64,000 nucleotides of DNA. It comes from Alphaproteobacteria bacterium. Lineage in GTDB: Bacteria; Pseudomonadota; Alphaproteobacteria; Bin95. The DNA is taken from positions 1,511,947 through 1,575,946 of the forward strand of contig OZ253490.1 in assembly GCA_965261985.1 (NCBI GenBank). The letters run 5' to 3'. Numbering within the stretch: position 1 is the stretch's first letter; each line of letters starts with the position of its first letter. Below are positions 3,601 through 26,289 of this stretch, one piece after another. Below the pieces are notes generated by a model. The model was not told where the DNA came from. It saw only the letters and a list, made by a program, of their open reading frames with translations, and made no database searches. The position numbers and the translations under genes were made by a program.

Positions 3601-3951
3601 TCAGGCATAGCCGCCTGCCATGATCCGGTCGAGATAGGCATGCACATGGTCGGCTTTGCCTTCGCGCACCAGCAGGTCGGACGTGGCGCCGCCGAATCCC
3701 GGCAGGGGCTCGGCCCGAAACCAGGCATAGGCTGCGAGCGGCGATCCGGTCTGGGCCTCAACGCGGTTCAGGATCTCCAGCATCTGGCGCAACCGGGTCT
3801 GCGTCTTCCGCGCCCGCACCCGCGAGGCGCGCGAAAAGGCATCTTTGCCGAGCCCCAGCGTGCCGGCGATCTCGGACCGGGTGGTGCGCAGCGCCTCGGC
3901 GATAAGCGCCGGAGAAAATGCCCGATCCTCGATGAATTCCTGAAATTGCAC
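3601..3951 (-). CDS. Xre/MbcA/ParS-like antitoxin (DUF2384) partner of the RES toxin
   Basis: 116-aa ORF 15 bp upstream of the RES gene. Its C-terminal DUF2384-like region fits the canonical antitoxin-then-toxin order. Confidence 0.6.
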   Translation of the reverse strand: MQFQEFIEDRAFSPALIAEALRTTRSEIAGTLGLGKDAFSRASRVRARKTQTRLRQMLEILNRVEAQTGSPLAAYAWFRAEPLPGFGGATSDLLVREGKADHVHAYLDRIMAGGYA

Positions 3952-4051
3952 GATACAACCTCACATTTCCTGACGCATTTTAGTGCGACAAAAGATGTTT
4001 TTCCAGAGGCGGCGTATGGCTTGCCGGAAATGGTGTTGCCGCTTCCGGCTT

Positions 4052-4753
4052 TCAGGCCTCCTTGCCGTAGCGGTGCAGTCCGCGGCCTTCGGTCTTGAGC
4101 CAGCGTTCGGCGGCGTCGGTTTCCGGGCAGAGGCGGCGGCAGAGGCTCCAGAAGCGGGGGCTGTGGTTCATCTCGCGGAGATGCGCCACCTCATGCGCGG
4201 CCAGATAGTCCAGCACGAAGGGCGGAGCCATGACCGCGCGCCAGGAGAAATTCAGCCGTCCGGCGGCGCTGGCGCTGCCCCAGCGCGTCTTCTGGTCCCG
4301 GATGACGATGCCGCGCGGCTGCACGCCGAGCGCGGCGGCATGGCGGGCAACGGCTTCCTCGAAGGCGCGCCGCGCTTCATGCCGCAACCAGCCTTCCACC
4401 AGCCGGGAGCACCCGGCCGGGCTCGCCAGCAGGATGCGGTCGTCCTCAAGCCTGAGCGGGTCCCGGAGCGCCGGGTCGAGGCGGATCCGGCGCGGACGGC
4501 CTCGAAACGGGACGGTCTCGCCGGGCTCGAACGGCACCGGGGCCGGCGTTTCCTGCAACCGGCCCGCCACCCATTCGCCGCGGCTCTCGAGGAACGCGAG
4601 GCCGGTCGCCTCGCTCGCGCCCGGTGGCAGCGTCAGACGGACCTCGCCGCCCCGGATGCTGAGCGAGATGCACCGTGCGCGCGGATTGCGGCGCACGGCG
4701 ACCCGGACCTCGCGGCCGCCGAGCCGGACCTGCCTAAAGCGCCCAGTCGACAA
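4052..4753 (-). CDS. M48-family / YgjP-like (DUF45) metal-dependent hydrolase
   Basis: 233 aa with an [16 protein letters not shown] zinc-binding HExxH motif typical of YgjP/SprT-like proteins. Confidence 0.7.
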
Positions 4754-5174
4754 TATGGCGTTCCAGGTCTTCCTGGTCGCTGCCGATCTCGTCCTCCGAG
4801 ATCACCTTGCCGCGCACGGACATCTGCGCCAGATGCACGGTTTCCGGGTCTCCCGAGACCAAGGGGTGCCACCAGTAGAGGTCCTTGCCCTCATGCAGCA
4901 GGCGGTAGGCGCAGCTCGACGGCATCCAGGCGATCTCGGCGACATTGCGCGGCGAGAGCTGGATGCAGTCCGGCACGCGGGCCTTGCGGTTGGGGTAGTC
5001 GGTGCAGCGGCAGCTTTCGGAGTCGAGCAGCCGGCAGGTGACGCAGGTCGGCTCGATCTCGCCCGTATCCGCCCATTCGATCTTGAGCAGGCAGCATTTG
5101 CCGCAGCCGTCGCAGAGCGACTCCCACTCTTCCGGCGTCATCTCGTCCAGCCGCTTCTCGCGCCAGAACGTCAT
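4734..5174 (-). CDS. YcgN-family cysteine-cluster protein (UPF0260)
   Basis: 146-aa product [31 protein letters not shown]... with the conserved Cys cluster. Start ATG at 5174. The 352-aa ORF upstream of it is non-coding. Confidence 0.75.
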
Positions 5175-5569
5175 GGCCGCCGTCCGTCCCGCCCGCTGCC
5201 CGGCTCTTCCTGGCGTTCGTCGCCGGTGAGGCCGAGCGCCCACATTGCGGCCAGCACACCGCCCTTCGCCACCGGCAGCAGCACGGCGATCAGAGCCAGC
5301 GCCAGCAGCGGCCAGACCAGCACCTGCAGCCAGAGCGCCGGCGCCCAGGTCTGCTCGACGAACAGCAGCAACGGCACGACGATATGCCCGGTGACCAGAA
5401 TGGCGATATAGGGCGGGAAATCGTCGGCGCGGATATGGCCGAGCGCCTCGCCGCACCCGGCGCAGGCCGCTACCGGGCGCAGATAGCCGGCAAAAGCCGC
5501 TCCCTCGCCGCAGGCGGGGCAGCGCCGGCGAAGGCCGTTGCGGAGGGCGGGTCCGAGCGCGCGCGCCAT
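5171..5569 (-). CDS. DUF983 family protein
   Basis: CPACGEG...CAGCGE zinc-ribbon followed by a hydrophobic segment. Start ambiguous: ATG at 5569 or TTG at 5605. Confidence 0.5.
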
Positions 5570-5616
5570 GCCCGGCAAGGTGGCCCCGCCTTCGCAGCGG
5601 GTCAAGCGGCGCCGCG

Positions 5617-6897
<1,281 letters not shown>

Positions 6898-15466: not shown

Positions 15467-15652
15467 ATGGCCGGAGACAAGGTGAAGGTCGAGGTCGAGC
15501 TGAACCCCGACATGCTGACCCTGCTCGACGACGTGGTGAAGGATTACCGCCTGCCGGACCGCGGCAAGGCGCTGCGCTGCCTGCTGGACTGGCTGGCCGT
15601 GGACGGCGACCGCGACCGGGTGTTCAAGAAGGTCCGCTGCCGGCGCTGCTGA
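15467..15652 (+). CDS. hypothetical small protein (61 aa)
   Basis: GGAGG Shine-Dalgarno site 7 nt upstream of the ATG. Predicted beta-strand plus helix, possibly ribbon-helix-helix-like. Its 3' end overlaps convergent cobK. Confidence 0.35.
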   Translation: MAGDKVKVEVELNPDMLTLLDDVVKDYRLPDRGKALRCLLDWLAVDGDRDRVFKKVRCRRC

Positions 15653-16373
15653 GCGCCCACTCGACCGCTTCTTCGACGCTGGAAACACGCGGGCCCGGCT
15701 CCAGCGGCGGTCGGCGGATCATCGCGACGGGAATGTTGCGTTCGCGCGCGGCGGCGATCTTGGCTTCCGTCGCAGCGCCGCCGGAAGCGCGCGTCACCAG
15801 CGTCCCGATACCGTAGTCATCGAACAGCCGGCGTTCGTCCGCGAGGTCGAACGGACCGCGCGCCAGCACCACATCCGCACCCGGCAGCGGCGAAAGGCCG
15901 GGGTCGATGCGGCGCAGCACGAAGCGGCGGTGCGGGAGCCCTGCAAAGGCGTCGAGGTCGCCGGGGCCGAGCGTCAGGAACACCGCGTCCGGCAAGCCGG
16001 CAAGCGCGGCGGCGGCCTCCCCGGCATCCGCCACGCAAAGCCAGCGGTCCCCCGGCTCCCGCCGCCACATCGGCCGCTCGACCGCGAGCCGGGGCACGCC
16101 CGCCCTTTCCGCCGCCTCGCGCGCATGGGCGGAGATACGCGCGGCAAAGGGGTGCGTCGCGTCGATCAGCCTCTCGATGCGCTCCTCGCGGAGATAGCAC
16201 GCGAGACCCGCCGTGCCGCCGAAGCCGCCGGTCCGGACCTTACCCGCCAGCGCCGCCGGACGCCGCGTCCGGCCGGCGAGCGAACTCGTGACAGCCGCCC
16301 GCCCGTCGAGCGCGCGCGCAATCGCCGCCCCCTCGCCCGTCCCGCCCAGGATCAGCACGCGGGGTCTAGACAC
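15624..16373 (-). CDS. cobK: precorrin-6A / cobalt-precorrin-6A reductase
   Basis: RVLILGGTGEGAAIARAL N-terminus and CobK/CbiJ family similarity throughout. The start is ambiguous: GTG at 16373, GTG at 16358 or TTG at 16397. Confidence 0.75.
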   Translation of the reverse strand: MSRPRVLILGGTGEGAAIARALDGRAAVTSSLAGRTRRPAALAGKVRTGGFGGTAGLACYLREERIERLIDATHPFAARISAHAREAAERAGVPRLAVERPMWRREPGDRWLCVADAGEAAAALAGLPDAVFLTLGPGDLDAFAGLPHRRFVLRRIDPGLSPLPGADVVLARGPFDLADERRLFDDYGIGTLVTRASGGAATEAKIAAARERNIPVAMIRRPPLEPGPRVSSVEEAVEWALSSAGSGPS

Positions 16374-16592
16374 CGGCCTCGCGCCGATGGGCGCCAACTA
16401 TCTGACAAAGCGTCGTTGTTGTCCCGAGATTTGCAACTGGGAAACAAATGCCGCAACTGGAGCCGGGAGAAAACACATGAGGAATGTCATCCTCGCCGAG
16501 GCACGCGTCAAGGTGCTCGGACCTGGCTCGCCTCGCTGCGCGCCGGTCAGCCTTGGCATCCGGCTATGCGCCGGGATTGATCGATCGACGGC

Positions 16593-16608
16593 TTGACAGT
16601 AGTATAAT
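16593..16608 (+). promoter_or_regulatory. consensus TTGACA and TATAAT hexamers upstream of relB (putative promoter/operator)
   Basis: TTGACA at 16593-16598 and TATAAT at 16603-16608 lie in an AT-rich patch of a GC-rich genome and are flanked by TCGAC repeats. They are only 4 bp apart, so this is not one canonical -35/-10 pair. Confidence 0.35.
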
Positions 16609-16644
16609 GTCTTCGACATCGTACGACTTCGCTCGGAGTCAACC

Positions 16645-16866
16645 ATGAGTCAGGTCACAGCCCGGCTTCCCGATGAACTGGTCAAGGCCCTCGACGACGC
16701 CGCCCGGGATCTCAAGCGTTCTCGCGCGGAGGTGATCCGCCAGGCCATCGAGCGCTACGTCGAGGATTTCGACGACCTGAGTGTCGCGATAGACCGACTC
16801 CGCGACCCAAGCGACCCGGTGCTCGACTGGGATGACGTCAGGCGTGGCCTACTCCGTCAGGATTAA
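16645..16866 (+). CDS. relB: RelB/DinJ-CopG-type antitoxin (ribbon-helix-helix)
   Basis: 73 aa with an N-terminal ribbon-helix-helix region (PDELVKALDDAARDLKRSRAEVIRQAIERY). Overlaps the downstream RelE-family ORF. Confidence 0.7.
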   Translation: MSQVTARLPDELVKALDDAARDLKRSRAEVIRQAIERYVEDFDDLSVAIDRLRDPSDPVLDWDDVRRGLLRQD

Positions 16867-17098
16867 AGGGAGCGCGGCCAGGGAGCTGGCCCGAATCGCG
16901 AAGCCGGCACGCGCGCGAATCGCTGAGGCGATCGATGGCCTCGCCGGGAACCCGTTCACGGGGACCGCCCTGAAGGGTGAGCTGCGCGGATTGCGGCGAA
17001 TCCGGGTCGGGGAGTATCGGATCGTGTATGAGATTCAGGAGGGGGAACTCGTCGTGCTGGTGATCCGGGTGCGCCACCGTAGAGACGTGTATCGCTGA
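16832..17098 (+). CDS. relE: RelE/ParE-family type II toxin
   Basis: 88 aa with C-terminal VGEYRIVYEIQEGELVVLVIRVRHRRDVYR typical of RelE/ParE. An alternative GTG start lies at 16844. Confidence 0.7.
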   Translation: MTSGVAYSVRIKGSAARELARIAKPARARIAEAIDGLAGNPFTGTALKGELRGLRRIRVGEYRIVYEIQEGELVVLVIRVRHRRDVYR

Positions 17099-17360
17099 GA
17101 TGCGATGTCAGTTCCATTCGTGAAGCGGTGCGCCGATGGATGGCCGAAGGCCCGGCGCGCCTGCTCGTCCGAGGGCCGCCCCATCCGGTGAACCGCCCGA
17201 GGCCCTCGCCGAACGCCCCGCACTCCGTTCCGCTGGCCTCTTCACCCTTTGAGACGCCCACGACCCGTAATTCGGCGTGGAATCCCGAGTCTGGCTCACT
17301 TGCGATGTAGCTTCGTCAGGCGGCAGGCGCGAGGCCCGCTCCGAGCAGGTCGATACCGGC

Positions 17361-18419
17361 CTATCCGTGTAAATCTCCTCTCCGATTTACGCCAGCCTCG
17401 CCGATTACCCGGCCACGCCGGTCGAACACGCGGACATCGACTTCCGTGCCGCCGGCGAGCACGGCGAGCGCCGTCTCGCGCGCCTGCTCGGCGATGCGCC
17501 GGGCGAGCGGCAGGCTGCCGGCCAGCTCCAGCACCGCACCCGCGCTGTGCGCCCCGCGCGCGTCCGGCCCGCCGAGCGCCTTCAAGTCCGCCGCCAGGCG
17601 CGGGATATCGACCGGGGCGCGGTCGGAATGCAGGTCCAGATGTCCTGCCGCCAGCTTGGAGAGCTTGCCGAAGCCGCCCGCAAGGCTGAGCCGCGCCACC
17701 GGCCGCCGGCGGAGATATTTCAGCAGCGCGCCCGCGAAGTCGCCCATGTCGATCATGCCGTGCGCCGGCAGGCCGAGCAGCGCCTGCAACGCTTCCTCCG
17801 AGCCGCGCCCGGTCGCCGCCCCGATACGGTCGAGGCCCGCGGCGCGCGCGACATCCACGCCGCGATGGACCGCATGAATCCAGGCCGCGCAGGAATAGGG
17901 GATGACGACCCCCGTGGTGCCGAGCACCGAGAGCCCGCCCTCGATGCCGAGCCGCGCATTGGCCGTCTTCAGCGCCAGCGCCTCGCCGTTCCCGATGCCG
18001 ATCTCGGCCTCGATATCGGCCGGGAGCCCGTATTCGTCGGCGACGGCGCGCAGGTTGTCGGCGATGATGGCGCGCGGGCCGGGATTGATCGCCGGCTCGC
18101 CGACGGCAAGCGGCAGGCCGGGCAGGGTGACAGTGCCGACGCCGGGGCCCGCCCGGAAACGCACGCCCGAGCCCGGCGGCGCGGGGTGCAGCCGGGCGCG
18201 CACGATGGCGCCGTGCGTGGCGTCCGGGTCGTCGCCCGCGTCCTTCTCCACGCCGATCCACGCGCCGGTCTCGGCGAGCGCAAAGGAGGCCTTGAGGCCG
18301 CGCGGCAGGTCGATCGTGACCGGGTCGGGCAGGCGGCCGGTGAAAAGGCGCTCGCAGGCGGCCCGCGCCGCCGCCGCCGCGCAGGCGCCCGTCGTCCAGC
18401 CGCGTCTCAGTTCCGCCAT
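17361..18419 (-). CDS. cbiD: cobalt-precorrin-5B (C1)-methyltransferase
   Basis: LRRGWTTGACAAAAARAA N-terminal CbiD signature. Start ATG at 18419. The 378-aa ORF has 26 non-homologous residues upstream. Confidence 0.8.
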   Translation of the reverse strand: MAELRRGWTTGACAAAAARAACERLFTGRLPDPVTIDLPRGLKASFALAETGAWIGVEKDAGDDPDATHGAIVRARLHPAPPGSGVRFRAGPGVGTVTLPGLPLAVGEPAINPGPRAIIADNLRAVADEYGLPADIEAEIGIGNGEALALKTANARLGIEGGLSVLGTTGVVIPYSCAAWIHAVHRGVDVARAAGLDRIGAATGRGSEEALQALLGLPAHGMIDMGDFAGALLKYLRRRPVARLSLAGGFGKLSKLAAGHLDLHSDRAPVDIPRLAADLKALGGPDARGAHSAGAVLELAGSLPLARRIAEQARETALAVLAGGTEVDVRVFDRRGRVIGEAGVNRRGDLHG

Positions 18420-18477
18420 GGCGCTTCCGATTGTAGGCCCTTGCGGCCCGGACGGAAGCGGACATAAACAGGGCGCC

Positions 18478-19293
18478 ATGACCGATACCATGCCCACCCT
18501 GCCCGAGAGCGAGGCGACCGGCCGCGCCGCCGCCCTCTATGCCGACATCCGGGACGTTCTCGGCGTGCCGGTGGTGAACCTGATCTGGCGCCGCCTCGCA
18601 CACTTTCCCGGTGCGCTGGAATGGGCGTGGGGCGCCGTCCGCCCGCTCTATGCGGGCGGCGCGGCCGATGCCGCAGCGGCGGCGATCCAGGCGCGCACGC
18701 CGCTGCCGGACCTGCCGCCCTGGCCCCGCGAGATGCTGCCGGCGATGGGCCTGGGCGAGGCGGAGAACGCGGCGATCCTGCACATTCTGGCGAGCTACGA
18801 CCGCGGCAACCGGCTGAACCTCGCCGCCCTCGGCGCGCTGCTGCAGGCATTGGAAGGCGCGCCGGCGCGCGGTTCCGTTCCGGCGGCCGGGGACGGCGCG
18901 CGCGCGGCGGTCGAGGGCGAGCTCCCGCCCATCCCCGCAATGGAGGCGCTTTCGCCGGAGGTGCGCGAGCTGGTGCTCCGGCTGAACGAACTCGGCAATA
19001 GCGGCGATAATGTCGTGGCCAGCCTCTACCGGCATCTGGCTTACTGGCCGGGCTACCTGGCGCTCGCCTGGGTGCAGCTTGCGGCGCTCGACCGGGACGG
19101 GCGGCTTGCCGCCACGATTGCCGCCGGGGCGGAGGCGGCGCGGGAGGCTTCGGCCGGGCTCGTCGGCGGCCTCGACCTGCCGGCGGAGCCGCCGCCGCCC
19201 GAAGTCGCCGAGGCAGTTGGGCAGTTCGTGCGCGGCCCCATCGCGCGGATGACGCCGGTCTCCCTGCTGCTTCTGCATCTTCTCGGGAAATGA
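18478..19293 (+). CDS. DehI-family (halocarboxylic acid dehydrogenase DehI-like) protein with an internal pseudo-repeat
   Basis: 271 aa. YADIRDVLGVPVVNLIWRRLAHFPGALEWAW is repeated as LYRHLAYWPGYLALAWVQL, matching the two-repeat DehI fold. The start codon follows a 58-bp divergent gap from cbiD. The stop overlaps the cobA start (ATGA). Confidence 0.5.
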   Translation: MTDTMPTLPESEATGRAAALYADIRDVLGVPVVNLIWRRLAHFPGALEWAWGAVRPLYAGGAADAAAAAIQARTPLPDLPPWPREMLPAMGLGEAENAAILHILASYDRGNRLNLAALGALLQALEGAPARGSVPAAGDGARAAVEGELPPIPAMEALSPEVRELVLRLNELGNSGDNVVASLYRHLAYWPGYLALAWVQLAALDRDGRLAATIAAGAEAAREASAGLVGGLDLPAEPPPPEVAEAVGQFVRGPIARMTPVSLLLLHLLGK

Positions 19294-20060
19294 CGCCGGA
19301 CCTGCCGAGGCTGGCGCCGGGCGAGGTCTGGCTCGTGGGCGCGGGCCCCGGCGACCCCGGCCTGCTGACCCTGCTGGCGGCCCGCGCGCTCGAAGACGCC
19401 GATGTCGTGGTGCATGACGCACTGGTCGATCCGGGCGTGCTGGCAATGGCGCGGGCGGGCGCGCGCATCCACCATGCGGGCAAGCGCGGCGGGCGGCCCT
19501 CGCCCTGCCAGCCGGACATTTCCGCCCGGCTCGTCGCCGAGGCGAAGGCGGGCGCCCGCGTGCTGCGCCTCAAGGGCGGCGACCCGTTCGTGTTCGGGCG
19601 CGGCGGCGAGGAGGCGCTGGCGCTGGCGGCCGCGGGCGTGCCGTTCCGCATCGTGCCGGGCGTGACGGCGGGCATCGGCGGTCTCGCCTATGCCGGCATC
19701 CCGGCGACGCATCGCGACGCCAACTCCGCCGTCACCTTCGTCTCCGGCCATGCCGCGCCGGAGGAAAGCGGCCTCGACTGGGAGGCGCTGGCAAGGGGTT
19801 CGCCGGCGCTGGTGTTCTACATGGCGCTCCGGCGGATCGACGCCATCGCGGCCCGTCTGATGGCCCACGGCCGCGCGCCCGACGAGCCTGCCGCCATCGT
19901 CAGCCACGCCGCCACCCCCCGCCAGCATGTCATCGAAACCACGCTGGCCGGCCTCGGCCAGGCGGCCCGCAAGGCCGAACCCCCGGCCGTCATAGCCCTC
20001 GGCCCCATAGCCGCCCCCCGCCTCCGCCTCGACTGGCTGAGGAAGCTGGGGGAGGGGTGA
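19290..20060 (+). CDS. cobA: uroporphyrinogen-III C-methyltransferase (SUMT)
   Basis: VWLVGAGPGDPGLLT, VLRLKGGDPFVFGRGGEE and class III tetrapyrrole methylase motifs. 256 aa. Confidence 0.9.
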   Translation: MTPDLPRLAPGEVWLVGAGPGDPGLLTLLAARALEDADVVVHDALVDPGVLAMARAGARIHHAGKRGGRPSPCQPDISARLVAEAKAGARVLRLKGGDPFVFGRGGEEALALAAAGVPFRIVPGVTAGIGGLAYAGIPATHRDANSAVTFVSGHAAPEESGLDWEALARGSPALVFYMALRRIDAIAARLMAHGRAPDEPAAIVSHAATPRQHVIETTLAGLGQAARKAEPPAVIALGPIAAPRLRLDWLRKLGEG

Positions 20061-20160
20061 GCGGTATTCGGGAAGGCAGCGGCATGTGGAAACCGGTGCT
20101 CATCCGGTCGATTGAACTGTTCCCCATTCGTGATACATTTGTCACCCAGGAGGACGCGCC

Positions 20161-20418
20161 ATGACCAAGACGGCCACGATCCGCGCCCGTGTCGAACCGG
20201 ACCTCAAGGAGGACGCCGAGATGGTGTTCTCGCAATTGGGGCTTTCGGCCACCCAGGCGATCAGGCTGTTCTACAAGCAGGTCACGCTGCAACGCGGCCT
20301 GCCATTCGCAGTCAAGGTTCCCAACGCGGAGACGCGCGAAGCGTTGCGACAAGCCTACGATCGCGACGAACTCACCGAGTACGAGACTCTGGACGCAATG
20401 AAGGCAGCCCATCGGTAA
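20161..20418 (+). CDS. dinJ: DinJ/RelB-family antitoxin
   Basis: 85 aa. IRARVEPDLKEDAEMVFSQLGLSATQAIRLFYKQV...GLPFAV matches DinJ. Strong AGGAGG ribosome-binding site. An imperfect palindrome GTGATACATTTGTCAC lies just upstream. Confidence 0.8.
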   Translation: MTKTATIRARVEPDLKEDAEMVFSQLGLSATQAIRLFYKQVTLQRGLPFAVKVPNAETREALRQAYDRDELTEYETLDAMKAAHR

Positions 20419-20567
20419 CCGTTCCAACAGGCCGTGGAACTAACCGGATCGGCGCTACATTCCGGCGGCCGGAGGGTGATTTTCTGCGCACCGCGGGCTA
20501 CGGAAGGCCGTCATGGGCCTTTCGCTCCCTTGCAGGTTTCTAGTGATTGTGGCGTGCACTCTACCGC

Positions 20568-22385
20568 TCAGCCGTCGTGTTTCCGGCGCCAGCCATAGCG
20601 CGCCAACAATTCGACATATACTTCAGGGCCCATTCGTCCCGCCCGCGAAGAACCTCCCGGAAAGACCTTCTCTTCCACCCTTCCGTCGTCGATGTTGAGC
20701 AGATAAGTCCCGGTGCCCGAGAGAATCACCCACGCCATGGCCTTGGTAAGCGGTGCCGGTTCCAATTGGACGACTGCCAAGCTGTCACGAATGATGCACA
20801 CGCTGCCCGCAATGGGCCCGAACTGGGTCACAAGATCGAGAATGAAGCGGTGGGCGTACCATGCTGACGCCGCCGCCGCCGCTCGTTTCTCTCCCTCCAG
20901 CAGGTCGACCGCCATTCGAAGCGACTGCCCACACTCCACGACATGCGTAAGCTCCGCCGGAGTGCACCGCGAGAGACCATCGTAGGGAATTGGCGGTTTG
21001 GGCTGACTCGGATTTAGGCAGAACTCCAACACAAGCCGCGGGTCAATTGGGTTTTCGTCCACAGTGTCGTACCGCAATGTGGGCGGAATAACCAGTCCGG
21101 TCGGCGGAGTCCCGATGGGCGGACCCTCTGCCAATGCCGGGTTCTGTCGAAGCGTCTCCACGCGCCAGTGTTCTGTTTCTTCATCGCGATACGCTTCGTG
21201 GACGAACCGAATCTGCGTCCCAATCTGGTGCAATATGATGACGTCCGGTCGCTGCTCTTCGTCCGAAGGGAATGGTTCCGGCACCTCCTCCGGCGACGTC
21301 ACAACTTCTTCGACAACTTCTTCTCTCGAATCTGCCGAATTCTGCTGTTCCTGATTCCAACTCGAACGTCGACCACGCGTAATTTGCCGCCTGTAGGTGT
21401 ATGTTCTGCCCGTCTCCCGCTCTTGATTTGCCGGTGACTCATCTTTGGAGACTTCCGCCACCGTCTTCTCCAGCTTGCCTTCCGGGTACTTCACTGGAAA
21501 CAGACAGTCCTTGAGCATGCCCGACATTGGAAGGTCGAACACCTCTCCGACCTCTGGGCCGATTGACAGCATCGCGAATCGGTATTCCATCTGTGCCGCG
21601 TAGTCACGCTCCCGCGACTTCAGAAAGATCATTGCAGAGAGTTTCTCCCAGCCCGGTTCGGCCTGCTCGATGCACTGATAGGGGCTGTCCACATAGAGCA
21701 TCGGCCCGTGCACCACGATCTGGGACCGCCGCTGCTCCTCCACGGTTCTGAATCCTCCAAAAGTCGCGCGCGCTGGCTCTGCCTTTCCACGTACGCCGAT
21801 ATGCTCGCACACACCGAGCCCCAAGCCTTGGGCGAATTGGGTCGGGCGATAGACCGACGTGAAACTCGTATAGCTGTCGGGAAACGACCTCCTCCAAGCG
21901 TTCTCCTTATCCTCGGAAGGGCGCATCGACATGCAGTAAATCAGCCAGTCGGCGCCGAACGTCGCCGCCTGCCTGCTGCTCTTCGACTCGGTATGCCGCT
22001 CGCTCCCACTCAACGACATCTTCGTGCGTGAGAGTTGGAGCCCAGCGTTCAAGGCTGAGACCCGTTCCGCTGACAGTTGCGGCTCCTCGCTCGGCACCTC
22101 GACCGTCTCGCTGGACGACATCCGCGCGCGGCCCTCTTGTTCGTCTTGGATCAGCACTTCACCCTTATCCCGGAAGGCTCCAGGGCGCGACAAGCGAATC
22201 GTGGATGCTGTCGCGAGGCCATATTGGGACTCCGTCGCCTTGACAAGACGCATACCGTCCTTCTCTATCTGTCCCGACAGATCCACGTACATCGTCTGAA
22301 CGTAGTTCCCTTGCGGCGTCAGGAACGCCCCCTCTGTGGCTATCCTCATCTTGGGGAACACGAATTCCCTTCGCTCATCTTCCAA
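20568..22385 (-). CDS. 605-aa hypothetical protein (ORFan) of lower GC, no recognisable domain
   Basis: Uninterrupted 1.8-kb ORF in a visibly lower-GC segment. The TTG start is preceded by AAGGAGA at 8-nt spacing. No Walker, HExxH or other motif identified. Confidence 0.55.
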   Translation of the reverse strand: MEDERREFVFPKMRIATEGAFLTPQGNYVQTMYVDLSGQIEKDGMRLVKATESQYGLATASTIRLSRPGAFRDKGEVLIQDEQEGRARMSSSETVEVPSEEPQLSAERVSALNAGLQLSRTKMSLSGSERHTESKSSRQAATFGADWLIYCMSMRPSEDKENAWRRSFPDSYTSFTSVYRPTQFAQGLGLGVCEHIGVRGKAEPARATFGGFRTVEEQRRSQIVVHGPMLYVDSPYQCIEQAEPGWEKLSAMIFLKSRERDYAAQMEYRFAMLSIGPEVGEVFDLPMSGMLKDCLFPVKYPEGKLEKTVAEVSKDESPANQERETGRTYTYRRQITRGRRSSWNQEQQNSADSREEVVEEVVTSPEEVPEPFPSDEEQRPDVIILHQIGTQIRFVHEAYRDEETEHWRVETLRQNPALAEGPPIGTPPTGLVIPPTLRYDTVDENPIDPRLVLEFCLNPSQPKPPIPYDGLSRCTPAELTHVVECGQSLRMAVDLLEGEKRAAAAASAWYAHRFILDLVTQFGPIAGSVCIIRDSLAVVQLEPAPLTKAMAWVILSGTGTYLLNIDDGRVEEKVFPGGSSRAGRMGPEVYVELLARYGWRRKHDG

Positions 22386-22667
22386 TCTCGTTGTCTCCTT
22401 GGCTTCAATAGCGCGTCACGGTGGGCGAGCCGGGCGTCCACACGCGGTGGGTCGCCTGCATGCAACGCTTGCGACGGTCCCGGCACGTTCGACTCGGGTG
22501 CAGCGCGCAGCTCGATATCGGTCCCTGCGACGATACCGGCTCATCCGCATATTGTCGCGCGAACCGAGAGTCAATCAGGCCCTCAGGGCGCTCTTGCCGG
22601 GCGTGTCTTGCCCGTAAGGGGTCAACGTGCCCCGGTCTGACGGAACGGATACGCCCATCGCTGAGGC

Positions 22668-22900
22668 ATGCGGCTGCTTGTAACCAGGTGGTTCGAGAGA
22701 GACCTCCGACGCTGCCGCCGGCGCAGCAAGGACCTCGACAGATTGTGGGCCGAAGTGGACCGGCTGTTGGCCGGCGAGCCGTTGGAGCCGCGCCATCGGG
22801 CGCACCGGCCCGGGAATACGCCCCCGAAACCCGATCCCCGAAATGCCGGCCGTGGATGGAAGTCGCGGGAAAGGCATTTTCCTTGTAGTCCTGCCGCCGT
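22668..22900 (+). pseudogene. decayed YafQ/RelE-family toxin gene remnant
   Basis: WFERDLRRCRRRSKDLDRLWAEVDRLLAGEPLEPRHRAH matches the YafQ consensus (F.RDLKR..KRGKDL.KL..VI..L..GEPLP...RDH). The downstream part is scrambled (GRGWKSRERHF versus GNWKGYRECHI) and runs in frame into the esterase gene. Confidence 0.55.
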
Positions 22901-22949
22901 TCACCATCGCTTCCCTCTCAGGCCGATTGCGCGTTCGGAAGGTCAGCCG

Positions 22950-23933
22950 ATGCCCAGGACACCGAAACGGCGTTCCCTGCAAGCCGTTGCCGCGATTCTT
23001 GCGGTGTTTGTTCTGCCGTCCTGCGCAGAGAGGTTCGATAACTCGCCTGTCGCTGCCGGGGAGGTGCGGACCCTGCTGCACCAGGGGGTCGAGCGGCGGT
23101 ACTACCTGCAGAACACCGAAGCGGGGGCGGCGGCTCCCGCGCCGCTGGTCGTGTCGCTGCACGGTTTCCGCAGCAGGGAGCCGGCCCTGGCGGAGCGCGA
23201 AGACCTGTCGGGGATTGCCTGGGAAGCACTCGACCGGGTAGCGGGCCGGGAGGGGTTCGTTACCGCCTATCCGCATGCCTGGCTCGGGCGATGGAACATG
23301 TTCGACGGATTGAAGGACACCCGGCTGGAGGACAGGCGGGAGGCGGACGATGCCGGGTTCGTCTTCGCCCTGGTCTCACATCTTGTCGCAGAGGGCCTGG
23401 CAGACCCGCACCGGGTCTATCTGACGGGGTTCTCCGATGGCGCCATCATGTCCTACAGGCTGCTCTGCACCGCCGGGATGCCGTTTGCGGCCGCCGCGCC
23501 CGGAGCCGGGTCGATGTTCGAGGGACACCGGGACACATGCGCCGCCGTGGCGCCGGTGCCGATCATGGTCATCGCGGGCACATTCGACGCGGTCCTGCCT
23601 TATGACGGGTGGATCTTCCCGACGGGACGCGAGCTGTCGATCCCGGAGACGATGGAGCATTTCCGCCTGCTCAACGGTTGGACCGGCCAGGAAGGCGCGC
23701 TTCGCGACTACCGGGACGGCCGGGACGACAGCCGCGTGCTCGAAATGCGCTGGACGGGCTGCACGGTCGAGGGTGCCGTCAAGCTCCTGAAGGTCAAGGG
23801 CGGCGGTCACAACTGGCCGAGCTACGAGCCTCTGCCCGACGAATGGCGCAAATGGGCCGGCGTGCAAAACCGCGACATCGAGAGCGCCGAGGAAATCTGG
23901 AATTTCCTGCGCCGGTTCCGCAAGACCGGGTAA
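22950..23933 (+). CDS. secreted/lipoprotein alpha/beta-hydrolase, PHB-depolymerase/LpqC-like esterase
   Basis: Signal peptide with lipobox-like LPSC. LVVSLHGF, GFSDGAIMSY (GxSxG) and a C-terminal GGGHNWP pattern typical of the PHB depolymerase esterase family. 327 aa. Confidence 0.65.
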   Translation: MPRTPKRRSLQAVAAILAVFVLPSCAERFDNSPVAAGEVRTLLHQGVERRYYLQNTEAGAAAPAPLVVSLHGFRSREPALAEREDLSGIAWEALDRVAGREGFVTAYPHAWLGRWNMFDGLKDTRLEDRREADDAGFVFALVSHLVAEGLADPHRVYLTGFSDGAIMSYRLLCTAGMPFAAAAPGAGSMFEGHRDTCAAVAPVPIMVIAGTFDAVLPYDGWIFPTGRELSIPETMEHFRLLNGWTGQEGALRDYRDGRDDSRVLEMRWTGCTVEGAVKLLKVKGGGHNWPSYEPLPDEWRKWAGVQNRDIESAEEIWNFLRRFRKTG

Positions 23934-24001: not shown

Positions 24002-24433
24002 ATGGCGGGCCTGGAGACCATCCTTCTCGGAATCGCGGTGGCGGCGAGCGCGCTCGTGTTCGGCGGCATGGTGACCTTCACCGGCTTCTTCGCGCCGATG
24101 GTGTTCCGCAGCCTCGACAAGCCGGTCGCCGACGCCTTCATGCGCGACGCCTTCGGCCCCTATTACGTCCTCATGGCCGTGGGCTCCGGCATCGCGGCGG
24201 TCTCGGCGCTCGCGGTGCAGCCGTGGGACGCCGCGATCATGGCAATGGTGATGGCCGCCTTCCTTGCCTCGCGCTATGTGACCATGCCGCAGACCCAGCG
24301 CCTGTTCGATGCGCGCGAACGCGGCGAATACGGCGCGGCGGAGGAGTTCGCGCGCGCCCACAAGCGCGGGGCCTTCGTCAACATGATCCAGCTCGTCGCC
24401 GTGTTCGCGGCGCTGTTGCGGCTGGCGCTCTGA
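24002..24433 (+). CDS. DUF4149-like membrane protein
   Basis: 143 aa with four predicted TM helices. Start ATG at 24002 within a longer ORF. Confidence 0.5.
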   Translation: MAGLETILLGIAVAASALVFGGMVTFTGFFAPMVFRSLDKPVADAFMRDAFGPYYVLMAVGSGIAAVSALAVQPWDAAIMAMVMAAFLASRYVTMPQTQRLFDARERGEYGAAEEFARAHKRGAFVNMIQLVAVFAALLRLAL

Positions 24434-24451: not shown

Positions 24452-25042
24452 ATGCGCAGGGGCCTGCAAATCGGGCTGCTCGTCTCCGGCACCCTCGTCT
24501 CAGCGCTCGCCGGCTACTGGCTCTGGTGGGCGCTGGAGGGCCGGCCGGAAGAGGGCCGGCCGGCGGTCGGCGGGTCGTTCGAGCTGATCGACGGCGACGG
24601 GCGCAAGGTGACGGAACGGGACTTCGAGGGCCGGCACATGCTGGTCTATTTCGCCTACACCTTTTGTCCCGATGTGTGCCCGACCACGCTCTTCAATGCG
24701 AGCGGGGCGCTGGACGCGATCGGCCCGGAGCTGGCGTCGAAGGTCCGGCTGGTCTTCATCTCCATCGACCCCGAGCGCGACACGCCGGAAATCGTCAAGG
24801 AGTATGCCGGCCATTTCCATCCCGGCACGGTGGGCTTGACCGGCACGCTGGAACAGACCGCCGCCGCCGCCCGCGCCTGGCGCATCTACTTCCGCAAGGC
24901 CGCCCCGGAGGATGACGGCGGCTACCTGGTGGACCACTCCTCGATCCTGTTCCTGATGGACGGGGACGGGCGCTATGTCACCCATTTCGGCCATACGGCG
25001 ACCGCAGCCGACATGGCGGCGGCCTTGAAACGCCTGCTGTGA
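24452..25042 (+). CDS. SCO1/SenC-family copper chaperone
   Basis: Thioredoxin-like protein with the CPDVCP motif and a conserved downstream His. 196 aa. Confidence 0.85.
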   Translation: MRRGLQIGLLVSGTLVSALAGYWLWWALEGRPEEGRPAVGGSFELIDGDGRKVTERDFEGRHMLVYFAYTFCPDVCPTTLFNASGALDAIGPELASKVRLVFISIDPERDTPEIVKEYAGHFHPGTVGLTGTLEQTAAAARAWRIYFRKAAPEDDGGYLVDHSSILFLMDGDGRYVTHFGHTATAADMAAALKRLL

Positions 25043-26289
25043 AGGGGGTCGTGCTCGCCGCCCCGGCTTCGGGGAGCGGCAAGACGACAATTGCCGCGGG
25101 CCTCGTCCGGGCGCTCGTCCGGCAGGGGCTCGCCGTGCAGCCCTTCAAGGCGGGGCCGGACTATATCGACGGGGGCTTCCTCGCCGCCGCCGCGGGACGG
25201 CCCTGCCGCAATCTCGACCCCTGGGCCATGCGCCCCGAAACCCTCGCGGCGGCGCTCGATGCGGGTGCGGACATTGCGGTCGTCGAGGGCGCGATGGGGC
25301 TGTTCGACGGCGCGGAGGGCGGCGGCGGCTCCACCGCGGACCTCGCGGCGCTCACCGGCTGGCCGGTCGTGCTCGCGGTGGACTGCGCGCGCCAGGGCCA
25401 GTCGGTCGCCGCGCTGCTGGAGGGGTTTGCGCGCCACCGCAGCGATATCCGCATCGCCGGGGCGGTGCTGAACCGGGTCGCGAGCGACCGCCATGAGGCG
25501 CTGTTGCGCGAGCGGGCGGGCGCGGTGCCGGTGCTCGCCGCGCTCCGGCGCGACCGCGAACTCGCCCTGCCGTCGCGCCATCTGGGGCTGGTGCAGGCCG
25601 GCGAGCATCCCGCGCTCGAAGCCTGGCTGGACCGCGCGGCGGACATGGTGCCGGCGGCGGCGTTTCCCTTCGGCCCGTTGCGGATGGCGGAGGTGTCGAA
25701 AACGGGCGGGGCGCCCCTGCCGCCCCTTGGCGGGCGCATCGCGGTCGCCCGCGACGAAGCCTTCGCGTTTGCCTATGAGCATGTGCTGGCCGGCTGGCGG
25801 CGCGCCGGGGCCGAGATCGCATTCTTCTCGCCGCTCGCCGACGAGGCGCCGGACGGCGACGCGGTCTTCCTTCCGGGCGGCTATCCCGAGCTCCATGCCG
25901 GGCGCATCGCGGCGGCCGGCAACTTCCTGGGCGCGCTCCGCCGCCATCAGGGGCCGGTTTACGGCGAATGCGGCGGTTACATGGTGCTGGGCGAGGGGCT
26001 GGCGGACGCCGAGGGCCGGCGCCACGCCATGGCGGGCCTGCTGGCGCTGGAGACGAGCTTCGCCGAGCCCGCCCGCCGGCTGGGCTACCGCTGCCTGGAC
26101 GCGCGCGCAGGCTTCCCGCTCGGCCGCGCGTTCCGAGGCCACGAGTTCCACTATGCGCGCGTGCTGAGCGAAGGACCGGGCGAGCCGCTGTTCGAGGCGG
26201 CGGACGCGCATGGCCGCCCGCTCGGCCCGGCCGGCCTCGTGCGCGGCAATGTCGCCGGCTCCTTCATGCACCTGATCGACGCCGCCTGA
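25039..26289 (+). CDS. cobB: cobyrinate a,c-diamide synthase
   Basis: N-terminal AAPASGSGKTT P-loop and a C-terminal glutamine amidotransferase domain (GECGGYM). The GTG start overlaps the sco stop. 416 aa. Confidence 0.85.
   Translation: MKGVVLAAPASGSGKTTIAAGLVRALVRQGLAVQPFKAGPDYIDGGFLAAAAGRPCRNLDPWAMRPETLAAALDAGADIAVVEGAMGLFDGAEGGGGSTADLAALTGWPVVLAVDCARQGQSVAALLEGFARHRSDIRIAGAVLNRVASDRHEALLRERAGAVPVLAALRRDRELALPSRHLGLVQAGEHPALEAWLDRAADMVPAAAFPFGPLRMAEVSKTGGAPLPPLGGRIAVARDEAFAFAYEHVLAGWRRAGAEIAFFSPLADEAPDGDAVFLPGGYPELHAGRIAAAGNFLGALRRHQGPVYGECGGYMVLGEGLADAEGRRHAMAGLLALETSFAEPARRLGYRCLDARAGFPLGRAFRGHEFHYARVLSEGPGEPLFEAADAHGRPLGPAGLVRGNVAGSFMHLIDAA

Follow-up and report, generated by a model that had tools for sequence, protein, structure and literature searches.

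Why would a gene whose product resembles the 2-haloacid dehalogenases lie directly upstream of, and overlap, cobA, the gene for uroporphyrinogen-III C-methyltransferase (SUMT)? The question is raised by a 64,000-nt stretch of DNA from Alphaproteobacteria bacterium (Bin95) (GCA_965261985.1, contig OZ253490.1, positions 1,511,947-1,575,946 of the forward strand), here called the window, to whose numbering all coordinates refer unless a related locus is named. Its DehI-like gene (18478-19293, plus strand) is followed on the same strand by cobA (19290-20060), which is recognized by PF00590 (161.7 bits) and, above the cut-off in both cases, by TIGR01469 (266.9 bits) and NF004790 (280.3 bits). An earlier note on this DNA had proposed that the upstream protein has an accessory function in tetrapyrrole or corrin metabolism, or else represents a co-opted fold. 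We consider it reasonably probable that a DehI-fold protein lacking the catalytic Asp became the first cistron of a unit with cobA once, and that the arrangement persists because cobA depends on it. Most simply, the link to cobA goes back to one ancestral operon arrangement that is not easily broken up, and is not evidence of a step in vitamin B12 (B12) synthesis.

Fold and pocket of the DehI-like protein

The open reading frame (ORF) is as the earlier note had described it, with an ATG at 18478 and 271 codons. A word-indexed search returned 70 homologues, each of about 270 amino acids, and an exhaustive profile search returned 2233 representative clusters (50%-identity clusters) at E<1e-3 and 689 at E<1e-30. 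The DehI-like gene is under purifying selection: measured against 14 relatives, its dN/dS is 0.16-0.40, with 0.08-0.33 for cobA.

The protein is built from two homologous all-alpha repeats (approximately residues 10-125 and 150-268). Profile-profile comparison of residues 1-135 with residues 140-271 (Prob 95.8%, E 7.8e-9) aligns VVNLIWRRLAHFPGALEWAW to VVASLYRHLAYWPGYLALAW, and thus bears out the internal duplication that had been noticed earlier. An AlphaFold2 model from 28 sequences, a check that the earlier note had suggested, is all-helical (mean pLDDT 93.2, pTM 0.91), and the sole Foldseek matches of this model at E<1e-4 are dehalogenases, including 3BJX, 3WJ8 and 5GZX (TM 0.67-0.81). Against the PDB, the family profile matches DehI of Pseudomonas putida PP3 (3BJX) with an E of 9.3e-24 over residues 5-234, and D- and DL-2-haloacid dehalogenases (D-DEX, DL-DEX) with E values of 1e-17 to 1e-22. 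Given these profile and structure matches, assignment to the two-repeat, all-alpha pseudo-dimer fold of the group I alpha-haloacid dehalogenases (PF10778) is secure. DehI and the Methylobacterium DL-2-haloacid dehalogenase (3WJ8, 4N2X) share this fold with the window protein, with a pocket between the repeats.

Two details of the earlier assignment need qualification. The homology to DehI stands on the family profile; as a single sequence, the protein falls below the PF10778 gathering score (26.7 vs 28.9 bits, E 6e-6) and matches over the first repeat only. PF10778 matches at E<0.01 are found in 22 of 28 relatives and are weak too, the best having an E of 2e-6. DehI is the sole Pfam match of the protein, and there is no NCBIfam match at E<1. 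The description of DehI as D-specific does not hold, since PMC5780510 takes DehI of P. putida PP3 to be of the DL type (DL-DEX), the D-specific enzymes being HadD and DehD (PMC5780510, PMC3546658).

The pocket differs from that of the solved enzymes at a residue that dehalogenation requires. We use native DehI numbering, in which W34, F37, S188 and D189 correspond to W49, F52, S203 and D204 of the 3BJX chain; we confirmed the 15-residue offset with W34, F37 and S188, which PMC4376737 names. Residue counts refer to 212 aligned family members. Asp189 of DehI, which activates water, is replaced by Leu183 in the window protein, and across the alignment this position is Leu, Met, Ile, Ala, Val or Phe, never Asp. 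Trp34, whose side chain has a role in carboxylate binding (PMC4376737), is replaced by Val32 (Val, Leu, Met, Phe or Ile among the aligned members), and Tyr117 of the pocket by Asn114 (Asn in 182/212). Two features are retained, namely the Asn partner of Asp189 (Asn114 in DehI, Asn111 here, Asn in 205/212) and Ser188, which binds carboxylate through its backbone (Ser182 here, Ser or Thr in 203/212). The comparison with HadD AJ1 (5GZX, 5GZY) gives the same picture, in that Asp205 and Asn203 have no equivalents and are replaced by Leu183 and Ala181. The catalytic Asp is strictly conserved in D- and DL-dehalogenases, and an Asp205Asn change abolishes the activity of HadD, in which Asn131 assists the Asp (PMC5780510). 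Because the equivalent of Asp189 is absent and this Asp is required, we infer that the known hydrolytic dehalogenation mechanism cannot operate in the DehI-like protein. The catalytic Asp that the earlier note had proposed to look for is thus missing from every aligned member, a finding that supports its suggestion of a co-opted fold rather than a dehalogenase.

The gene belongs to a large unnamed subfamily with a hydrophobic residue at the position of the catalytic Asp. Conserved pocket positions in this subfamily are polar and uncharged (Asn34, Asn111, Asn114 and Ser182), with Asn34 and Asn114 being subfamily-specific, and each repeat carries one of a pair of conserved Arg/His motifs, WR[HR]LA and YRHLA. 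Together, the polar set and the paired motifs suggest that the protein binds a ligand or catalyses a different reaction. It contains no cysteine, which rules out AhpD-type CxxC redox chemistry; neither the CxxC nor the Cys/His motif of AhpD-like proteins and carboxymuconolactone decarboxylases (CMD) is present, there is no Pfam CMD match at E<1, and those proteins (for example 2OUW) have a single domain, whereas the domain is duplicated here. The window protein is also shorter than DehI and DL-DEX (271 vs ~296 amino acids), and it is encoded beside cobA, whereas they are encoded in a dehalogenase island. The name "DehI family", which one public annotation gives to a relative, implies a dehalogenase, yet the required residue is absent from this widespread subfamily, which comprises hundreds of 50%-identity clusters. 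Annotations of the Asp-less subfamily that imply dehalogenation are therefore probably wrong. The fold and the family are known; in the searchable literature we found no description of an Asp-less subfamily of this size or of its coupling to cobA, and no mention of PF10778 or of a link between DehI and cobalamin.

Coupling to cobA and its distribution

The DehI-like gene ends with a Lys codon at 19288-19290 and a TGA stop at 19291-19293, and the cobA ATG occupies 19290-19292, giving the 4-nt ATGA overlap that the earlier note had reported. We inspected this junction in 15 loci, the window and 14 others. The ATGA overlap is present in 14 and an 11-nt overlap in the remaining one, and none of the 15 has a Shine-Dalgarno-like sequence at a usable spacing before cobA. 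On the other side, the divergent cbiD gene begins with a Met codon at 18419 on the minus strand. All relatives share the same start Met, so the spacer between the two starts is 58 nt (18420-18477), a distance that also agrees with the earlier reading. The region has a G+C content of 75%.

The spacer holds a promoter-like element on the plus strand, TTGCGG (18441-18446) and CATAAA (18463-18468) separated by 16 nt and ending 9 nt before the ATG, while a TACAAT on the minus strand (the reverse complement of 18430-18435) faces cbiD. In closely related linked loci, CCTTGCGGC-N12-GCGGACATAAACAGG stands just before the ATG, with minor substitutions in L004 and L006, and it is kept whatever gene lies upstream, including a short-chain dehydrogenase/reductase (SDR) gene in place of cbiD. 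L081 and L082, linked loci at a greater distance, do not keep it. Only the comparison of loci revealed the promoter-like element, and promoter function is inferred because a strict sigma-70 and terminator scan of 17000-20700 reported no promoter; a terminator-like site at 20460-20474 was no more than shuffled sequences give. The DehI-like gene appears to be translationally, and probably also transcriptionally, coupled to cobA.

Several observations on the same interval may be added. Positions 18430-18472 and their equivalents in L001-L012 are strongly conserved as GATTGTAGG...CCTTGCGGC-N12-GCGGACATAAACAGG. The spacer reads as back-to-back promoter-like elements, from which both cbiD and the DehI-like gene would be transcribed with very short leaders, and its downstream half is kept even where another gene replaces cbiD. 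Control by a cobalamin riboswitch was considered and rejected: the window contains no Rfam family at threshold, and no cobalamin riboswitch was found there or in 11 related loci at Rfam gathering scores. Rfam matches in L004 (8516-8606, minus strand) and L011 (10339-10423, plus strand) are to a selenocysteine tRNA and, at a contig end, to the 5´ part of a group II intron.

How widespread is the link? Scanning one genome per species, we obtained 337 relatives and retained the best 80. Within these 80, all 12 loci at 76-92% identity have cobA directly downstream (12/12), and the 68 loci at 38-51% identity have no cobA, cbiD, cobK or cobB within 6 kb. Two relatives of intermediate identity, P0023 (68%) and P0027 (54%), also carry the pair, and two additional members of the close clade came from a metagenome scan with P0027 as the seed. 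Its 78 unlinked loci contain no cobA, cbiD, cobK, cobB or cobD, and the genomic contexts of five further relatives contain no cobA, cbiD, cobK or cobB. In total, 16 loci besides the window are linked (54-92% identity), and 123 loci with at least 800 nt of downstream sequence are unlinked, none having cobA downstream (32-51% identity); for 30 more, the sequence was too short for a decision. A neighbour-joining tree of 90 proteins, built before L161 and L164 were found, unites the 15 linked members that it includes in a single clade free of unlinked members. Conservation of the coupling within one clade only is secure. The coupling is therefore not peculiar to this genome, as the earlier note had allowed it might be, and overlap occurs at every junction inspected. 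Pfam and NCBIfam searches give no match to a cob or cbi family, so that this part of the earlier interpretation stands together with the co-opted fold; a general co-occurrence of DehI-like genes with cobA across unrelated lineages, for which it had proposed a check of gene neighbourhoods, does not.

Within the clade, the pair is more stable than its surroundings. Of the first 15 linked loci, the window, L003, L005, L007, L009, L011 and L082 have cbiD as the divergent neighbour, and the truncated L001 probably has it too. In L004, L008, L010 and L012, the upstream position is taken by an SDR gene on the same strand, and in L002, L006 and L081 by other genes. Adjacency to cbiD is thus kept in only some linked loci, and the overlap and the conserved upstream element persist while the flanks rearrange.

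Three further possibilities were examined and set aside. An independent association with cob genes among distant relatives was rejected on the 68 genome loci, the 78 metagenome loci and the five additional contexts, L071 being a lone case with a cobD-like neighbour. A clade-specific functional shift was rejected as well, since linked and unlinked members differ at peripheral positions and agree throughout the universally conserved core, which includes E10, R25, V33, N34, L35, R38, Y107, N111, Y184, R185, H186, W190, F250 and M258, among others. Finally, P0229, a 534-residue protein in the P0023 cluster, might have been taken for a fusion of a DehI-like protein to CobA. It leaves the P0023 frame ~50 residues before the end and then reads into cobA on a 4.3-kb contig, and so is a frameshift or assembly artefact.

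What the link to cobA may mean

We suggest that a cytoplasmic protein with the two-repeat DehI fold binds, or acts differently on, a small polar or carboxylate ligand between its repeats, and that its biochemical function would be the same as in the many relatives found among catabolic genes. In one alphaproteobacterial lineage, its gene would have become the first cistron of a two-gene unit with cobA. The unit would be transcribed from a promoter of its own with a very short leader, and cobA, which has no usable ribosome-binding site, would be translated by termination-reinitiation after the DehI-like ORF, so that the amount of CobA made would follow the translation of that ORF. In this lineage, cobA appears to rely for its expression on an unrelated upstream ORF, both on the promoter of that ORF and on its translation, a dependence that would be relevant to predicting B12 production from metagenome-assembled genomes.

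Some observations weigh against this interpretation. The pair remains together down to 54% protein identity (dS ~1) despite several rearrangements of both flanks, and the DehI-like gene stays with cobA, not with cbiD; such persistence would also be expected from selection for co-expression. In addition, the promoter and reinitiation steps are predictions from sequence, and the assignment of the pocket residues comes from aligning the sequence with those of solved structures.

A lineage-specific accessory factor for corrin or tetrapyrrole metabolism is a distinctly weaker candidate, and would bind or protect uroporphyrinogen III or precorrin-2, or modulate SUMT, and therefore be needed in a fixed ratio with CobA. 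Retention of the overlap with cobA in all 17 clade members, down to 54% identity and with rearranged flanks, fits this idea, as do the position of the unit between cbiD-cobK and cobB in the likely ancestral order and the purifying selection on the DehI-like gene. Uroporphyrinogen III and precorrin-2 are polycarboxylates, and the paired motifs WR[HR]LA and YRHLA could bind carboxylates. The unlinked locus L071, in which the DehI-like gene adjoins a CobD/CbiB-like gene, might also be cited, but this lone case is within chance. Against the idea, the association with cobA has a single evolutionary origin, the 123 unlinked loci have no cobA (those tested also have no cbiD, cobK or cobB, nor cobD in the metagenome set), the conserved core shows no clade-specific change, and no B12 riboswitch was found in the window and 11 related loci. 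To our knowledge, B12 producers generally have no DehI-like gene beside cobA. The homologous D-DEX enzyme HadD, a tetramer, has an enclosed pocket of only ~71 cubic angstroms (PMC5780510), and a tetrapyrrole would need far more space. We therefore regard a genuine accessory role at the SUMT step as rather unlikely, and the specific version in which the DehI-fold protein is an unrecognized SUMT partner, a ligand-binding or chaperone subunit in a fixed ratio with CobA, as a little less likely again. The B12 link rests on a single evolutionary event, and guilt by association is weakened because the cluster mixes B12 genes with DUF4149 and SCO1 genes. If an accessory role were true, the protein would be a new component at the first committed step of corrin synthesis, and a partnership with SUMT would give the Asp-less DehI subfamily its first function; the evidence, one ancestral gene-order event, makes this a modest lead, not a discovery. 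A precedent for small non-catalytic proteins in cob clusters is CobE, a non-enzymatic carrier of intermediates in the aerobic pathway. It is a mere precedent, as CobE has no sequence or fold relationship to the window protein, which matches no Pfam or NCBIfam cob family.

Three other explanations are much less probable. The original partners of the DehI-like gene could have been the downstream genes for DUF4149 and SCO1/SenC (copper delivery, respiratory assembly), with cobA inserted between them and its link secondary. These two genes lie 1-4 kb downstream of cobA in the window and eight linked loci, follow the DehI-like gene on the same strand with short gaps in L046, which has no cobA, and lie 1.2 kb downstream in L071. 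We find this improbable, however, because the association is seen in just 2 of the 68 unlinked loci of the genome scan, the 78 unlinked metagenome loci give no DUF4149 match and only two distant SCO1 matches, and the distance is variable with other genes inserted between. Still less credible is that the ORF is merely an upstream cistron that drives cobA translation and whose product has no function of its own; overlap with a cobA gene that has no ribosome-binding site in the inspected linked loci would be compatible with this, but the dN/dS of 0.16-0.40, the confidently predicted fold (pLDDT 93.2) and a conserved core common to hundreds of unlinked relatives argue otherwise. Least probable of all is the role implied by the family name, that of an active D- or DL-2-haloacid dehalogenase. 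The fold matches, the sequences are distantly homologous, the equivalents of Asn114 and Ser188 are retained, the public annotation noted above uses the DehI name, and some relatives adjoin HAD-type hydrolases. Nevertheless, Trp34 is lost, the single-sequence Pfam score is under threshold, and the solved dehalogenases score 67-88 bits on the family profile, compared with >220 bits for the 150 best-scoring members. The Asp whose change to Asn abolishes activity, and which is strictly conserved in these enzymes (PMC5780510), is never present in the 212 aligned members.

Gene order around the pair

The genes that flank the pair in the window include several for B12 synthesis. Upstream on the minus strand are cobK/cbiJ (15624-16397; precorrin-6A reductase; PF02571 219.6 bits, NF005968 285.7 bits) and cbiD (17361-18419; cobalt-precorrin-5B C1-methyltransferase; PF01888 263 bits, NF000849 410.7 bits). 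Downstream on the plus strand, Pfam matches identify DUF4149 (24023-24433), SCO1/SenC (24452-25042) and a cobB-type a,c-diamide synthase (25039-26289). By tblastn, DUF4149-SCO1 is found 1-4 kb downstream of cobA in the window, L002, L003, L005, L007, L008, L010, L012 and L082. The order in L082, in which cobK-cbiD diverges from DehI-like-cobA-DUF4149-SCO1-cobB with no gaps, is likely ancestral, and the window holds the same gene set with two insertions.

One insertion (16603-17098) encodes a ribbon-helix-helix (CopG-type) antitoxin and a ParE toxin and separates cobK from cbiD, which are adjacent in L081 and L082. The other, of ~3.8 kb (~20134-23933), lies between cobA and DUF4149-SCO1-cobB and has a G+C content of 0.60, compared with ~0.70-0.75 around it. 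It looks inserted because in L082 DUF4149 follows cobA directly. This block contains a RelB-like antitoxin gene (20161-20418), a minus-strand ORF of 605 amino acids (20568-22385) that matches nothing in Pfam, and an ORF with weak similarity to esterases or PHB depolymerases (22965-23933).

Among unlinked relatives, L046 (45% identity, no cobA) carries the DehI-like gene, DUF4149 and SCO1 on one strand with short gaps (3922-5930 of that locus). In L071 (4858-9004), a CobD/CbiB-like gene (PF03186, 58.9 bits) lies divergently upstream and DUF4149-SCO1 1.2 kb downstream. This cobD-like gene has no counterpart in the other loci checked, and one such neighbour is within chance for several hundred flanking genes.

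The neighbours of unlinked relatives are, in general, genes for varied small-molecule enzymes that differ by subclade, with no universal partner. They include a Zn-dependent dehydrogenase with DUF1330 and a histidine phosphatase; a divergent FAD oxidoreductase (DAO) with GST or DSBA and MR_MLE; an aminotransferase with Fur; an FAA hydrolase (in Bradyrhizobium); PhyH; TauE with an alpha/beta hydrolase; an AidB-like dehydrogenase with a TRAP transporter; and LysR with a sulfatase and an aldehyde dehydrogenase. Another such context is the pairing of Amidohydrolase_2 with a HAD hydrolase. The HAD superfamily has the fold of the L-2-haloacid dehalogenases. In L054, L072 and L073, a group that includes Bradyrhizobium sp. 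S69 (DehI-like gene at 6001-6810), the Amidohydro_2 gene lies upstream of the DehI-like gene and the HAD-superfamily hydrolase gene downstream.

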